A DNA stretch of 64,000 bases, taken from a virus. Location: positions 102,499 to 166,498 of the IMG/VR virus record IMGVR_UViG_3300036780_000209. The stretch is one strand, 5' to 3'. Within the stretch, counting starts at the first letter, position 1; the number at the start of each line of letters is the position of its first letter. Below, piece by piece: positions 30,257 to 47,097 of the stretch. The position numbers were made by a program, and so were the translations under genes. The notes below the pieces were generated by a model. That model ran no database searches. It was not told the DNA's origin and saw nothing but the letters and a program-made list of their open reading frames with translations.

Positions 30257-32398
30257 CTACCCCTTGTAATTGAGCACCTGGCTGAGTACATGCTGCACCC
30301 GGCAGAGGTCGGACTGAGCCTCCATCACCAGGTCAATGTCCTTGTAGGCCTGCGGGTGCTCGTCCACCAGGTCCTTCGCCCGGTCCTCGTTCCAGGTGCG
30401 GCCCGTCATCGCCTTCTTGAGGGAGCTGCCGGTCAGCTCCCGGCGGGCCTGGCCCCGGCTGAGGCGGCGGCCCGCACCGTGGCTGCACGACAGGTAGGAA
30501 GCAGTGTTAGCCAGGCCGCTGACAACATAGGAGCGCGTTCCCATCGAGCCCGGGATGATCCCCTCATCGCCTGCGCCGGCCTTGATCGCGCCCTTGCGGG
30601 TGATCCACAGCTCGCGGCCCAGGTGCTCCTCGCGCTGGGTGAAATTGTGGTGGCAGTTGATGGTGCGCACCACCTTGCCCTTGCCGACGACCTGGAACAG
30701 GGACTTCGTGAGCGCGCCGACCATCTGCTCGCGGGACGCCATGGCGTAGCGCTGAGCCCAGAGCATGTCATGGATGTAGGCGCTGAACTCGTCGGTGCCC
30801 TCGGCCAGGTAGGCCAGGTCCGGGTCCTCCAGGTGCACGAGCGTCTTCTTCATCACGCCCTTGGCGGCGTTGATGTGCATGGTGGCGAGCTGGTTGCCGA
30901 TGCCCCGGGATCCTGAGTGCAGCACGGTCCAGACGACATCGCGCTCGTCCAGGCAGACCTCGACGAAATGGTTGCCCGACCCGAGGGTTCCGAACTGGAC
31001 CTCTGCCGTGGCCCGCTGCTTGGGCGACAGCGAGGTAAACGGCAGGCCGATCGCATCATAGGCGGCGAAATGCGGGGCCACGGCGATGGTCCAGTGGTCC
31101 GGGTCGTGGCCCTTGCCCACTCCGGCCGGGATGCGCTGCTCGATCAGGGACATCAGCGTGCGCGTCTCCTTGCCGACCTTCACGCGCTGGGTGCCCAGGT
31201 CCGGCAGGTCGGCGGCGGTCAGGCTGGTCTCGCTGGCCACCATCCCGCAGTTGCCGGTCATGACGATATTGCCGCCACGGCGCATGACCCAGAAGCCTGA
31301 CGGGACCTTGAAGCAGTACGCCTTCCCATCCTCAGCCGGCACCATGGTAATCGGGGTCTTCGGGACGCCCGCCATGGAGACCATGGTCTTATCGTGCCGG
31401 AATACCCGGTAGTCCAGCTTCCCGTCTTCGTCTACGTCAGCACGGAGAACGGCCCGGCGACCGCAGGCGGTGAAGGCATAATGAATGAAGTCAGCAGATT
31501 CCTTGTCTCGCGTGTAGAAGCAACCCTCTACCACGTTCCCGTCCCAGTTCAGGCACTCATCAGTGACATGCATAAGCTGGTTCAGGTGAGCTGGCCAGAA
31601 GGACTCGTAGGATTTCGAGTACAGCGGTGGCCGGAAGCGGAAGGCAGTGACCTCATCCGCGCTCACGTTCTCGGTCCAGGAGATGCCAGCATTAGCCAGC
31701 AGCTTGCGGGCACGCTCGATCTTGCGCTCCTTCTTGAGGCGGACTACTGCTTTCCTGCCGCCGTCATCGAGATGCCCGTCAGCATTGACCATGACCTGAA
31801 CCCGGATCTCCTCAGCGGTGAGATCAATCTCGGTAGCAAGATCAGGAATAAAGGTGGTAGCGAAGCGAGCCTTGAAACCCTGCTTGAGACGGGCATGCTC
31901 GGCAGCGAAATGATCGGCGGTCATGGTGGTCATGACCGTGCGGCGATCCCGGCCGGTGACCTTCCAGCAGAGCACCCGGTGGTCTGCTGTGAGCACCTGG
32001 TCAATCCCGTACTTCGTCCGGAGACGATAGAACGACTCACATGGCTGCACGACGAACGCCTCGGGCTGGACGAAGCGACCCACCCCATACCCCGGCACGT
32101 ACTGCATCACCAGGCCGCCGTCATACTCGCTGATCTTGCGCCAGCCCGCAGGCGACAGGTACTCACTGTCCTTGTCTACACACCCGATGTCCACTCCGAC
32201 GGCAGCGGGAATGACCGCGCCCTCCGTGGGAATGACAGAGCCGACGGTCGCGCCGATGCCGACGTGGGCGTCGGGCATCAGGGCCACGTGCCCTGGCACG
32301 AACGGCATCCGGGAGGCCTTGGCCGCCTGGTCGATCGTTCCCTGCTCCATCAGCGGCCGGCCCCAGGCCAGCACCTTGTCTGCTGCCCGCTCAGGCAT
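30257..32398 (-). CDS. rtcB: RtcB RNA ligase with intein
   Basis: MPDAH.G.G, VGVDIG^CGM, GTLGSGNHF.E, HSGSRG.G, HHN, PGSMG, SHGAGR and DEHPQAYK. Start re-called at MPERAAD. Confidence 0.95.
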   Translation of the reverse strand: MPERAADKVLAWGRPLMEQGTIDQAAKASRMPFVPGHVALMPDAHVGIGATVGSVIPTEGAVIPAAVGVDIGCVDKDSEYLSPAGWRKISEYDGGLVMQYVPGYGVGRFVQPEAFVVQPCESFYRLRTKYGIDQVLTADHRVLCWKVTGRDRRTVMTTMTADHFAAEHARLKQGFKARFATTFIPDLATEIDLTAEEIRVQVMVNADGHLDDGGRKAVVRLKKERKIERARKLLANAGISWTENVSADEVTAFRFRPPLYSKSYESFWPAHLNQLMHVTDECLNWDGNVVEGCFYTRDKESADFIHYAFTACGRRAVLRADVDEDGKLDYRVFRHDKTMVSMAGVPKTPITMVPAEDGKAYCFKVPSGFWVMRRGGNIVMTGNCGMVASETSLTAADLPDLGTQRVKVGKETRTLMSLIEQRIPAGVGKGHDPDHWTIAVAPHFAAYDAIGLPFTSLSPKQRATAEVQFGTLGSGNHFVEVCLDERDVVWTVLHSGSRGIGNQLATMHINAAKGVMKKTLVHLEDPDLAYLAEGTDEFSAYIHDMLWAQRYAMASREQMVGALTKSLFQVVGKGKVVRTINCHHNFTQREEHLGRELWITRKGAIKAGAGDEGIIPGSMGTRSYVVSGLANTASYLSCSHGAGRRLSRGQARRELTGSSLKKAMTGRTWNEDRAKDLVDEHPQAYKDIDLVMEAQSDLCRVQHVLSQVLNYKG
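31250..32182 (-). mobile_element. 311-aa intein in RtcB
   Basis: Begins CVDKDSEYL, has block B VLTADHRVL and a LAGLIDADG-like VMVNADG, and ends MTGN/C at the VDIG|CGM site. Confidence 0.92.
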
Positions 32399-32468
32399 CA
32401 GTACCACCTCGTCTCTGATTACAAGGTATCTTATCAAGCAACTCGTTATCTTCGAAGAAAGGATCACC

Positions 32469-32705
32469 GTGAAGAAGATCATCAAGGGCATCGGCTCACT
32501 CGGGCTCACCGCCGCGTCGGCCCTGCTCGCGGGTGCCTGCTACGAGCACGGACGGAAGATCGGCAAGGGGGAGGCCAAGTTCTCTCCCGAGGCACTCGGC
32601 TCCACCGCCCACGGCTTCATGACCAAGGTGGTCATGAAGGTCGTGGAGCAGCGGGCCAGGCTCGCAGCCGAGCAGGCCGCAGCCAAGGCCAAGTCCAGGG
32701 GCTGA
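32469..32705 (+). CDS. Hypothetical protein
   Basis: AAAGGA RBS and GTG start, divergent from rtcB and followed by a terminator. Confidence 0.55.
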   Translation: MKKIIKGIGSLGLTAASALLAGACYEHGRKIGKGEAKFSPEALGSTAHGFMTKVVMKVVEQRARLAAEQAAAKAKSRG

Positions 32706-38624: not shown

Positions 38625-38771
38625 GGATTGCCTCCTTCCCACCTTCCGGGGGACCGGAGGGGGAGGAGCAGTAAAAGCTGATGGCCCTCGTGCCGGCCGC
38701 TGCGCCTCCGGGGCGCTTGGCGAGCACGAGGGCCAGAGCAGTTCACTCCGCAGCGGAAACGAGAAGCCGGG

Positions 38772-38843
38772 AGACCCCTAGCGGATTCGAACCGCTGTGA
38801 CTGACTTTGCAGGCCAGCACCTAAACCACTCGGCCAAGGGGCC
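38772..38843 (-). tRNA. tRNA-Cys(GCA)
   Basis: Cloverleaf, loop CT GCA AA, T-loop TTCGAAT. Confidence 0.9.
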
Positions 38844-40059: not shown

Positions 40060-40062
40060 AGT

Positions 40063-40300
40063 GGCCGGAGTCTTGGCGAATTCCCGCGCTCCTCGCGGAG
40101 GCGCTCTCCGGGTCAGTCCCGGAGGACTGCAGGGGCTACCCTGGGGAAATGGTCCAGCCTGTCCTGATGCCAGGGCACGTGCAGGGCGTCCCCCGCTGTA
40201 GAGGATCCAGGGGCACGGGTACTGTCCCCTGAAACCTCGTTAGGCAGTTTCACCTGCCACGGGAGGGTCAGCGGTGACTAGTACGCTGCTGCCTCCGGCC
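40063..40300 (-). ncRNA. Candidate 238-nt structured RNA
   Basis: Closed by an 8-bp GGCCGGAG/CTCCGGCC stem, with several internal hairpins. Confidence 0.5.
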
Positions 40301-40303
40301 GAG

Positions 40304-40343
40304 CGGTCCCTACGAGACTTGAACTCGCGACCTCTGCCTTGAC
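40304..40343 (-). pseudogene. 3' half of a second tRNA-Asp(GTC)
   Basis: GTCAAGGCAGAGGTCGCGAGTTCAAGTCTCGTAGGGACCG with no matching 5' half. Confidence 0.8.
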
Positions 40344-40349
40344 CAGAGG

Positions 40350-40760
40350 TCAGGCGGCTGCGCCTGGAGAGACCTCGTACTGCTGAGCCCAGCGAACATG
40401 CTGAGCCTGATTGTTGTTGGTCGGCTCAACCCTAAGCCGGCCCTCTCGCTCACCTACATCCCCCACCGGCACCAAGTACACCTTGTCCAGGGCCGGACAG
40501 TAAACCCCAAACAGGTCAGCATCTCCTCGGTACCCCATGGAACTCTGATCGCGCCGTAGGCTATGCGGCCGGAACAGGACGCAGCCCTGCTGGTAGACCG
40601 CCGTTTTGCATTGCACCCGGACCAGGGTGCCGTCGCCGCCGTCATAGGCCAGGTCGTATCTGTGGCCACCGCCGAACGGGATCAGGACTCGCTTGCCGAG
40701 CCGCAACAAGGCCGCGAGCACGATCCCTTCAGTTTGACTACCTTTGTCCGTTGTGTTCAC
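40350..40760 (-). CDS. I-Ssp6803I-like PD-(D/E)XK homing endonuclease
   Basis: T..KG...E...L..G..VLIPFG...RYDL..D....L.RVQCKT...Y..DADLFGVY....KVYLVPV. Confidence 0.85.
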   Translation of the reverse strand: MNTTDKGSQTEGIVLAALLRLGKRVLIPFGGGHRYDLAYDGGDGTLVRVQCKTAVYQQGCVLFRPHSLRRDQSSMGYRGDADLFGVYCPALDKVYLVPVGDVGEREGRLRVEPTNNNQAQHVRWAQQYEVSPGAAA

Positions 40761-40784
40761 GAGACCTATGTTACATGCTGACAG

Positions 40785-41666: not shown

Positions 41667-41671
41667 ATGCG

Positions 41672-41745
41672 TAGACCCCCTGAGGATCGAACTCAGCTCA
41701 TACCGGGTATAAGCCGGCTCCCCGCAACCAGCGTGGCTAGGGTCC
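41672..41745 (-). tRNA. tRNA-Ile(TAT)
   Basis: Stem GCCGG/CCGGT, loop CT TAT AC. Confidence 0.82.
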
Positions 41746-41750
41746 ATGAA

Positions 41751-41928
41751 GAATGTCCTGGTGTGCTGCTACGCCAAAGGCCCTGGAGGCAACCACGAGC
41801 CGCACGCCTTCCGGGCATGCGGGACGGCCGTCCCAGCCCGCGTACTTCGGCCTTCCAGGTTAACCAGGTGGCCACCTGGCCCACTCCTTAGAGGATGGCT
41901 GCTTCTAAGCCAACCTTCCAGGACATTC
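41751..41928 (-). ncRNA. Candidate RNA mimicking the 23S rRNA uL11-binding domain (H43-H44)
   Basis: 11-bp perfect closing stem. Contains GTTGGCTTAGAAGCAGCCATC and a GCGTAGCAGC hairpin. Confidence 0.75.
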
Positions 41929-41930
41929 AG

Positions 41931-42002
41931 TAGCGAGAGGGAATTGCGACATCCCGACCTCCGCCTTATGAAAGCGGCGTTCTTCCTCTGAACTATCTCG
42001 CC
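41931..42002 (-). tRNA. tRNA-Met(CAT), elongator or Ile2 type
   Basis: Loop TT CAT AA, atypical T-loop. Confidence 0.75.
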
Positions 42003-42694: not shown

Positions 42695-42780
42695 AGGTGG
42701 CGCATGCCAGGACTCCCGCCGGTCCTGGCTCGGCGGTGCCTGGCTCCAGGACTTGTGGTTCCCGGTGCGCCGCCGGGAAG

Positions 42781-42867
42781 CGGATGACGGAGTACTCGAA
42801 ACCCACCCCCTTGCAGGAGCCAGCCGCTTTCGAGGCGGAGCCGGTGCGCCTGCCCGGTTCGTCATCC
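42781..42867 (-). tRNA. tRNA-Ser(CGA)
   Basis: Long variable arm, loop CT CGA AA. Confidence 0.87.
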
Positions 42868-42947
42868 AGGGTGATCCCGTTAGGCAGGTCTGCGCCCTGC
42901 AGCCCGTGCGCACGGACAGCCCGGGTACAGGATCAAGCCGGGCTTTG

Positions 42948-43033
42948 CGGATGACGGAGAGCCCGAGTCCCAGCCCCTTCACGGGACCCGCTCCGTTTCC
43001 AGCGGAGGCCGGCGCCTTGCCGGTTCATCATCC
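42948..43033 (-). tRNA. tRNA-Ser(GGA)
   Basis: Long variable arm, loop CT GGA AA. Confidence 0.87.
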
Positions 43034-43248
43034 ATGTTCCCGGAGTATGGCATTACCCGATTCTGCCAGGGACTTGCGCTGGTCTAGTGACCTCGCCATG
43101 CGATGCGGTCGGGACACGTGTCGCACACGCAAGGTGCCAGCCAGGCCGCCAGGAGCGGCCTGCACGGCCTGGGCTCTCCTGAGTCCGCCGTAGCCATGGC
43201 AGCGGGGAGAGCGACGGAATCGAACCGTCCCGGGCATGCCCGGCCTAG

Positions 43249-43335
43249 CGGAGAGCGGACTACTCGAAAGCCACCCCCTTGCGGGAGCGATCCGGCTAGC
43301 AACCGGTCCCAGCGCGCCTGTCTGGTTCACCCTCC
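43249..43335 (-). tRNA. tRNA-Ser(GCT)
   Basis: Long variable arm, loop TT GCT AG. Confidence 0.87.
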
Positions 43336-43450
43336 ATGCTGACCCGTTCGCCCTCCGCGACGGCTGGGCAGCCGTCCGAGGTACTGGGCAGGGCTTGGTC
43401 GCGACACCGTTCGCCCTGGAGGCGGCCACGGCTCCTCAGCCGCCTCTTCG

Positions 43451-45701: not shown

Positions 45702-45772
45702 CGCGACACAACGGGACTCGAACCCGTACCTGGGGATTGTGTCCCCCGTGCTGCCGATTACACCATGCGTCT
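45702..45772 (-). pseudogene. tRNA-like element with a 5-nt anticodon loop
   Basis: Intact D and T arms, but stem GGGGA/TCCCC encloses only CACAA. Confidence 0.7.
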
Positions 45773-45825
45773 CAGCCGGGGAGCGACCCTGACCGCAGCT
45801 AAGGGAAGGATCCTTTCCCTTCGCG

Positions 45826-46800: not shown

Positions 46801-46921
46801 GTGGAGCCCCGAGTGATTCCGGCCAGGGCGCTTGGAGTCGCGCCTGGTCATGCCGGTTACCATTGTCAGCCGACTGCTAGCAGGACGGCTTCCGGATGCC
46901 GTGCCACGGCTCGGGACATTA

Positions 46922-47097
46922 CGAGGGGCGCTCTGCCGCTGAGCTACCAGCCACCTAGGGCCGGAGCCCATCACCAGTGGCCGGGCAGGATTCGAACCCG
47001 CGACCTCCCCCCTGCTTGCGGAGGGGGCTCTGCGACTTGAGCTATCCCGGCATGGATGGGGCCGGGACCAGGCCTTGCACCTGGATCTCCCTCCTCG
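46922..47097 (-). ncRNA. Tandem circularly permuted tRNA-like RNA
   Basis: Two T-arm > looped acceptor stem > D-arm modules, closed by CGAGG/CCTCG. Confidence 0.7.

Follow-up and report, generated by a model that had tools for sequence, protein, structure and literature searches.

The minus strand of positions 41751-41928 of the window, by which we mean the whole 64,000-nt stretch of phage DNA analysed here, probably carries the gene for a stable non-coding RNA of approximately 180-185 nt, whose ends, judged by sequence comparison, resemble the uL11-binding domain of 23S rRNA. The same architecture was found in at least 96 IMG/VR phage loci as well as in cultured phages, and the family is large, spread among unrelated large phages and apparently undescribed. 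Known phage gene sets include tRNAs and a handful of ribosomal proteins, but neither Rfam 15 nor the literature searched contains a phage RNA that closely copies a functional rRNA domain, and we regard it as a new kind of element. Our favoured reading, which we rate at about an even chance, is that this RNA imitates the uL11-binding site away from the ribosome, as a mimic or sponge, and that its ligand would most probably be host uL11.

A probable RNA gene with the parts of the GTPase-associated centre

The original prediction had described, from the letters alone, an rRNA-like domain split by an insertion and held together by a perfect closing stem, and sequence reading of the minus strand confirmed that observation (Table 1). 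The 23S genes used for comparison came from three bacterial genomes, and the central 21 nt of the helix 43 (H43) equivalent are the same as in the Vibrio gene. Three unpaired bases lie between the 5′ strand of the closing stem and helix 43. On the far side of the insertion, the hairpin G-C-GUAGCA-G-C (41765-41774) differs from helix 44 (H44) in two loop bases only. Within the insertion, the closing helix is weak in this RNA, with two G-C pairs followed by a G-G mismatch, and the long arm has an internal loop that holds CGAAGUA (41843-41849) and two terminal hairpins.

Table 1. Parts of the RNA gene and the tRNA genes on either side, in window positions; numbers in the last column are E. coli 23S rRNA positions unless they have five digits
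Feature	Position	Strand	Remarks
tRNA, anticodon CAU	41931-42002	-	Rfam tRNA, 47.4 bits; missed by ARAGORN
Closing stem, 5′ strand	41918-41928	-	Approximately the top of helix 42, about 1045-1055; perfect 11-bp complement of 41751-41761
Helix 43 equivalent with 1067 loop	41892-41916 (25 nt)	-	1057-1081; A1067 at 41906
Junction	41883-41891	-	C-UAA-G (the 1082-1086 pair is C-G here), then G1087-A1088-G1089-U1090 (GAGU)
Insertion, 103 nt	41780-41882	-	Between U1090 and G1091
Insertion, short closing helix		-	Fold prediction
Insertion, hairpin 1	41864-41879	-	Fold prediction
Insertion, long arm	41782-41859	-	Fold prediction
CUUUG linker	41775-41779	-	Last base of the insertion helix plus single-stranded UUUG; not in rRNA; family signature
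Helix 44 hairpin with 3′ bases	41762-41774	-	G1091-C1100, loop A1095 at 41770; then A1101 (at 41764), C1102, A1103
Closing stem, 3′ strand	41751-41761	-	About 1104-1114
tRNA-Ile(UAU)	41671-41745	-	ARAGORN

At gathering thresholds Rfam 15 returned tRNAs only, and relaxed searches gave no family for the RNA and a local large-subunit (LSU) rRNA match. Alignment to the bacterial LSU covariance model (RF02541), proposed as a check together with the original prediction, placed 41861-41922 on model positions 1092-1152 as a local match of 23-28 bits (E 3e-5 in 401 nt, 1.2e-5 in another search and 5e-8 across the phage genome), which is under the gathering score of 50 and does not represent a full-length 23S gene. 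The H42-H43-H44 secondary structure is present with the conserved nucleotides of the GTPase-associated centre. The model tried to close the domain on the first hairpin of the insertion; comparative data put the true partner at the far 3′ end, in agreement with the original prediction. No other rRNA-like match was found with the LSU model in the 166,498-bp virus record, so the RNA is not part of an rRNA operon. A blastn search of the 5′ half against E. coli genomes gave nothing at the E limit.

In predicted folding, none of 200 shuffled sequences does as well as the whole RNA (z -3.9). Nearest-neighbour folding prefers another pairing of the core (-89.6 kcal/mol when free, -72.7 kcal/mol when constrained). 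Because it likewise misses the authentic 23S domains, in three cases out of three and by 11-14 kcal/mol, minimum-free-energy folding is uninformative on the core, and its failure there would be as expected for a fold held by tertiary contacts. Mechanically called open reading frames over the region were rejected as genes, since what is conserved, between phages that differ widely in GC content, is compensatory base pairing.

The phage itself is a high-GC (64-68%) myovirus. Its tail sheath has 25-27% identity by tblastn to those of Mycobacterium, Gordonia and Rhodococcus myoviruses, a distant likeness that makes an Actinomycetota host likely; a megablast search of cultured phages with 16 kb of the window gave no match. 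A 750-aa open reading frame (30257-32509, minus strand) combines a PhoH-like ATPase region with an RtcB tRNA-splicing/RNA-repair ligase (PHROG 1075, E 5e-122) and lies 10 kb from the tRNA array. RtcB and LigT were considered as regular neighbours of the RNA and rejected, RtcB being present in the fetched flanks of one of 95 other member loci.

Distribution and covariation of the family

Blastn against cultured phages matched the 5′ half in Pseudomonas phages pf16 and UNO-G1W1, in which the order is helix 43, GAGU, an insertion of approximately 120 nt, CUUUG, helix 44 and closing stem. The closing stem of these two phages differs in sequence yet is perfectly complementary, and both copies sit between two tRNAs on the tRNA strand. 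Further cultured carriers found by blastn were Milchi, Astolliot, Aeromonas phage 4_4572, the Erwinia pEa_SNUABM series and XacN1, together with the jumbo phages GAP32, CBB and Serratia BF. In the cultured carriers the RNA locus is either without annotation or lies under a hypothetical open reading frame. The XacN1 copy (AP018399, about 150250-150590) is a variant with GAAU for GAGU and AUUUG for CUUUG.

A scan of IMG/VR with a pattern of the 5′ half only gave 15 loci, 12 of which had the 3′ motif 77-296 nt away and a complementary closing stem; the CUUUG linker was likewise present in 12 of the 15, the other three being copies of one sequence with a longer insertion. The reciprocal scan, with a pattern of the 3′ half only, gave at least 119 loci. 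A helix 43 core lay within 900 nt upstream in 96 of its 129 matched places (88 unique), and the other 33 are what chance would give for a pattern of such length. The search for homologues retaining both halves, on which the original prediction had staked itself, was thus positive. GAGU is kept in register in 86 of the 102 loci with both halves, a set whose membership was defined by exact patterns that fix some columns and inflate some conservation figures; for the same reason, the family is larger and more varied than was sampled.

In 185,579 species genomes the 3′ pattern matched mostly by chance: six of 120 matches carry the helix 43 core, and those whose records were read lie on contigs of metagenome-assembled genomes. 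In essence, then, it is phages that carry the family. A match in Paenibacillus phage Pd_22F (MZ092003, about 83400-84050) was rejected as a member, as it is a continuous true 23S rRNA stretch at the end of the record, which points to host DNA, either packaged or included in the assembly. The window RNA has the traits of the family throughout: a non-rRNA closing stem of at least 8 bp (11 bp here) topped by G1055-C1104, the helix 43 core, the 1082-1086 pair and GAGU, an insertion at 1090/1091 with a UUU(G/A) linker, A1101 pairing with U1090 in helix 44, and a location in a tRNA array on the tRNA strand.

For the analysis of covariation, 75 unique cores were numbered by E. coli positions and 43 full-length members were aligned with MAFFT, and pairs were counted on a structure taken from the rRNA model and extended by the insertion-closing helix. 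Standard pairs filled 88% of cells in the 43 members as against 68% after shuffling. The covariation score was 0.542 versus 0.149 for shuffled alignments, a value reached by none of 500 shuffles, and it was 0.165 or less when the partners were slid by 1-3 columns. Pairs 1047-1055/1104-1112 are 68-100% canonical with four to six pair types each, compared with about 40% canonical after shuffling. In the closing stem, each of eight positions has all four Watson-Crick types, and no sequence is conserved beyond the top two pairs; the signal is gone beyond 1047/1112.

Five to six pair types occur at 1058-1080, every one of them canonical, whilst 1082-1086 occurs as U-A, C-G or A-U and is paired in 95-97%. 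Both G1087-C1102 and U1090-A1101 are standard pairs in 43 of 43 members, the latter as U-A in 41. The helix that closes the insertion covaries as well, its second pair being G-C in 24 members, A-U in 14, C-G in two and U-A in two. Pairing of U1090 with A1101 keeps the 3′ strand of the helix 44 stack unbroken, so that the insertion branches off sideways rather than disrupting it.

Covariation is therefore strong for all the rRNA-type helices and for the insertion-closing helix, and the argument of the original prediction for a maintained structure, not a captured scrap, is borne out by homologues that keep both halves and by compensatory changes in every helix. The core sequence also does not track host rRNA: the Pseudomonas phages keep GAGU and C1080, whereas the 23S rRNA of Vibrio, also gammaproteobacterial, has GAAA and A1080. 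A core independent of the host, together with an insertion point, a UUUG linker and an A1101 that are all shared, argues that the family arose once and then spread between phages, rather than being captured repeatedly.

We give almost no credence to a non-functional remnant, that is, a drifting piece of host 23S rDNA possibly split by a small mobile element or intron. True 23S fragments do occur in phage records, as at the end of that of Pd_22F, and the local LSU-model match of the window RNA is below the gathering score; but the same insertion point, linker and A1101 recur across distant hosts and GC contents, the compensatory changes are frequent, the core does not follow host rRNA and the closing stem is not rRNA sequence. 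Neither a drifting scrap nor an intron-bearing fragment is compatible with the covariation and the lack of any Rfam intron match. A group I or group II intron was rejected too, with no such family at E up to 10, an insertion of 103 nt and ‘exons’ of approximately 75 nt that end in a non-rRNA stem.

tRNA context and probable release

The upstream tRNA with anticodon CAU was found by Rfam, so the array has 42 tRNA-like genes, not 41. The RNA would be transcribed within this 42-tRNA polycistron. Because the upstream tRNA ends 2 nt before the RNA, 3′ processing of that tRNA would define its 5′ end, and because the downstream tRNA starts 5 nt after it, RNase P cleavage there would define its 3′ end. 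From this arrangement we infer that processing at the flanking tRNAs leaves an RNA of approximately 185 nt (41746-41930).

The wider family fits with such a route. ARAGORN found 287 tRNAs within 1.5 kb of the 88 unique members, all of them on the same strand as the RNA and none opposite; at least one tRNA lay within that distance for 56 of the 88, and none for the other 32. In 18 cases the upstream tRNA ends no more than 6 nt from the closing stem, and in 22 cases a downstream tRNA begins no more than 15 nt away; the window RNA is placed in this close manner. That member ends abut same-strand tRNAs at the level of the family is in keeping with release by tRNA processing, which the original prediction had put forward. 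The XacN1 copy is placed differently, not between tRNAs: it follows a 2′-5′ RNA ligase gene and is followed by a terminator-like hairpin.

Conserved nucleotides, insertions and possible ligands

As many columns are fixed by the search patterns, only free columns were read for conservation. G1059, U1060, A1077, C1079, A1084 and A1085 are invariant in all 75 cores, though pattern-free, and position 1101, also pattern-free, is A in 73 of 75. In the 14-mer, where two mismatches were allowed, none fell on G1063, C1064, U1066, G1071, C1072 or G1074; mismatches are mainly at 1065, 1067, 1068 and 1070, with a few at 1069, 1073, 1075 and 1076. A1067 is A in 61 of the 75 cores (81%). In the helix 44 loop, 1096 is A or G and 1097 can be any base.

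The fold recognised by the uL11 C-terminal domain is built by contacts that, in the work of Conn et al. and Wimberly et al. of 1999, are reportedly U1060-A1088, the triples of 1071/1072 with 1091-1100 and 1092-1099, and the 1082-1086 turn, the 1051-1108 fragment being said to fold and to bind uL11 alone. Thiostrepton, EF-G and A-site tRNA make contact with the exposed bases A1067 and A1095. Across the family, the fold-building bases are kept more strictly than the factor-facing bases, which points to uL11, or another reader of the fold, rather than to a factor or a thiopeptide. Genes for uL11, bL12 and RelA/SpoT were not found in the window phage, nor was a uL11 gene in five other complete carrier genomes; any protein partner would therefore be the host's.

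The two ends of the RNA would join as a free-standing GTPase-associated centre consisting of the top of helix 42, helix 43 and helix 44, the classical 58-nt uL11-binding domain, and the 103-nt side branch would leave the helix 44 bulge between U1090 and G1091 with the stack unbroken. The RNA would bind a ligand of this site off the ribosome, most probably host uL11, with an output in step with the phage tRNAs. One speculation is that a sponge that scales with tRNA output might lower uL11-dependent activation of RelA by the flood of phage tRNAs. However, capturing free uL11 need not strip uL11 from ribosomes, and the insertion, whose size varies and can be very large, suggests some activity besides uL11 binding.

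Two other ligands named in the original prediction fared less well. A decoy for thiopeptides fits poorly with a family found in Pseudomonas, enterobacterial and Xanthomonas phages, and with an A1067 that is conserved at the 81% given above. A role for L10 has little support from a closing stem that is free to vary below its top two pairs.

A broader reading is that large phages of many bacterial phyla use free RNA copies of the factor-binding site as decoys for host uL11, translational GTPases, RelA-type sensors or toxins directed at the site, the uL11 domain always being copied and a sarcin-ricin-like loop in some phages. We hold this tentatively, at a little short of even chances. The L11 stalk is a hub for GTPase activation of EF-G and EF-Tu, RelA-dependent (p)ppGpp synthesis, thiopeptide action and at least one bacterial toxin. 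If true, the mimicry proposed here would mean that phages manipulate the stalk, and the decoy reading would add a new class of RNA-based host take-over or counter-defence, made in step with phage tRNAs. As several cultured carriers have tractable hosts (pf16 on P. putida, GAP32, CBB and XacN1), the idea is directly testable.

The insertion is always located between U1090 and G1091, and ranges from 77 to about 360 nt across the family with heterogeneous content. A CACCCCG-tetraloop-YGGUAAGG element is present in 16 of 89 insertions, and CGAAGUA in eight of 89 (1.1 expected), the window included. The structure of the window's own insertion is constrained by one close relative, L008, its nearest and the only close one in IMG/VR; this keeps hairpin 1 with two compensatory pair changes, and its long arm keeps the CGAAGUA/UGGUU internal loop between helices that are changed but complementary. 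A loosened pattern for this type of insertion gave ten matches on metagenome contigs, all of them by chance.

An insertion point that stays constant while size and content differ so much, sub-family motifs of this kind (the tetraloop element, CGAAGUA and a few sarcin-ricin-like ones) and the window layout kept in L008 with compensatory changes would all suit an RNA whose core is a folding platform, perhaps protected by uL11, with the activity in the insertion as an aptamer, a ribozyme, or a protein-binding or base-pairing region. We nevertheless consider it rather improbable, because it is the core, not the insertion, that is common to the whole family, and rRNA-specific tertiary nucleotides would be superfluous in a mere scaffold; nor did any insertion match an Rfam family. 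For RNA engineering, the element in any case offers a natural, independently folding scaffold with a tolerated insertion site.

A minority of members have sarcin-ricin-loop-like 13-14-mers in the insertion (L082, L047 and L182, with insertions from about 110 to over 300 nt), and no sarcin-ricin-like element or second LSU match was found in the tRNA array or the window. In one member, on an IMG/VR contig of 518,643 bp (L070), 16 nt at insertion positions 65-80 are identical to 23S rRNA, a match that holds for each of the three 23S genes used and falls approximately 48 nt upstream of helix 43. Judged by sequence, further rRNA-like modules seem to be present in some members. These modules, and the near-identity of the core to a functional site, could also be read as marks of a trans-acting spare part or ribosome-associated RNA that docks where the L11 stalk is damaged or absent, or otherwise joins the ribosome. 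We find this very improbable: the closing stem has no conserved docking sequence, and we are aware of no mechanism by which a free domain could take the place of one that is covalently attached.

The main rival reading, which we consider unlikely, makes the RNA a decoy that protects ribosomes during infection by drawing off an enzyme or toxin directed at the GTPase-associated centre (an ADP-ribosyltransferase, nuclease or methyltransferase), whether from a host defence or from a competitor. Phage tRNA arrays are widely read as a counter to tRNA-targeting defences, and it is in such arrays that the RNA is placed. RtcB is encoded by the window phage, the XacN1 copy follows an RNA ligase gene, and the sarcin-ricin-like 13-14-mer that some long relatives add is another classic toxin target; but RtcB lies near only the one other member locus, and the window RNA is without the sarcin-ricin-like element. 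Toxins for exactly this site do exist, for example, the Rhs toxin Tre23, which ADP-ribosylates helix 44 around 1095-1098 and blocks the EF-G GTPase, stalling EF-G (PMC8661411), so the site is a real target in bacterial warfare. Against such a decoy, loop positions 1067, 1096 and 1097 are the least conserved in the family. Our literature search yielded no anti-phage system with this target, and to our knowledge none is known.

The phage RNA can be set against several known systems. It shares with the 23S GTPase-associated centre (E. coli 1051-1108) the pairs 1057-1081, 1058-1080, 1082-1086 and 1087-1102 and the helix 42 stem. It differs in being free-standing, between tRNAs in a genome without an rRNA operon, and the family differs in its 77-360-nt branch at 1090/1091, its UUUG linker and A1101, its relaxed positions 1067, 1096 and 1097, and a stem that is unrelated to helix 42 below 1047/1112. 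Conceptual relatives are the r-protein leaders that mimic rRNA, the Y RNA-like tRNA mimics and the 6S RNA decoy. The r-protein leaders (the L10 leader RF00557, and the L1 and S15 sites) are likewise off-ribosome RNAs that imitate an rRNA protein site, but they are cis parts of host mRNAs and loosely rRNA-like, whereas the phage RNA is a separate, near-identical gene. Identity with such a leader was rejected, as no leader model matched at E up to 10 and both neighbours are tRNAs.

A precedent for release by tRNA processing comes from the T4 species 1 and 2 RNAs (rnaC and rnaD), which are also small stable RNAs in a phage tRNA cluster and are matured with the tRNAs; their sequences have neither the helix 43 nor the helix 44 motif, and they are not members of the family. 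YrlA, ROOL and GOLLD are likewise structured non-coding RNAs of phages or prophages beside tRNA genes, and none gave a sequence or model match to the RNA. YrlA is reported to imitate tRNA and to bind a host protein (PMC4201824). The statement in the original prediction that no phage RNA like this has been described held up, in that none was found in Rfam 15 or in the full-text literature searched.

The tRNA array has other features of note. A weak YrlA match (RF02553; 32.7 bits, E 4e-4, gathering score 69) lies at 46895-47022 on the minus strand, overlapping an ARAGORN ‘tRNA-???’ with a four-base anticodon (46977-47052), and may represent a second protein-binding mimic RNA in the same array. 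Other inter-tRNA spacers of 60-750 nt occur between 38844 and 47469 (for example, 40060-40783 and 42695-43449), and Rfam searches of these spacers found nothing besides tRNA-like genes, the YrlA-like match and the present RNA. Lastly, ARAGORN reports a tRNA-Cys with the anticodon ACA, an unusual A34, at 45702-45773 on the minus strand, in addition to a normal tRNA-Cys(GCA) at 38770-38843.
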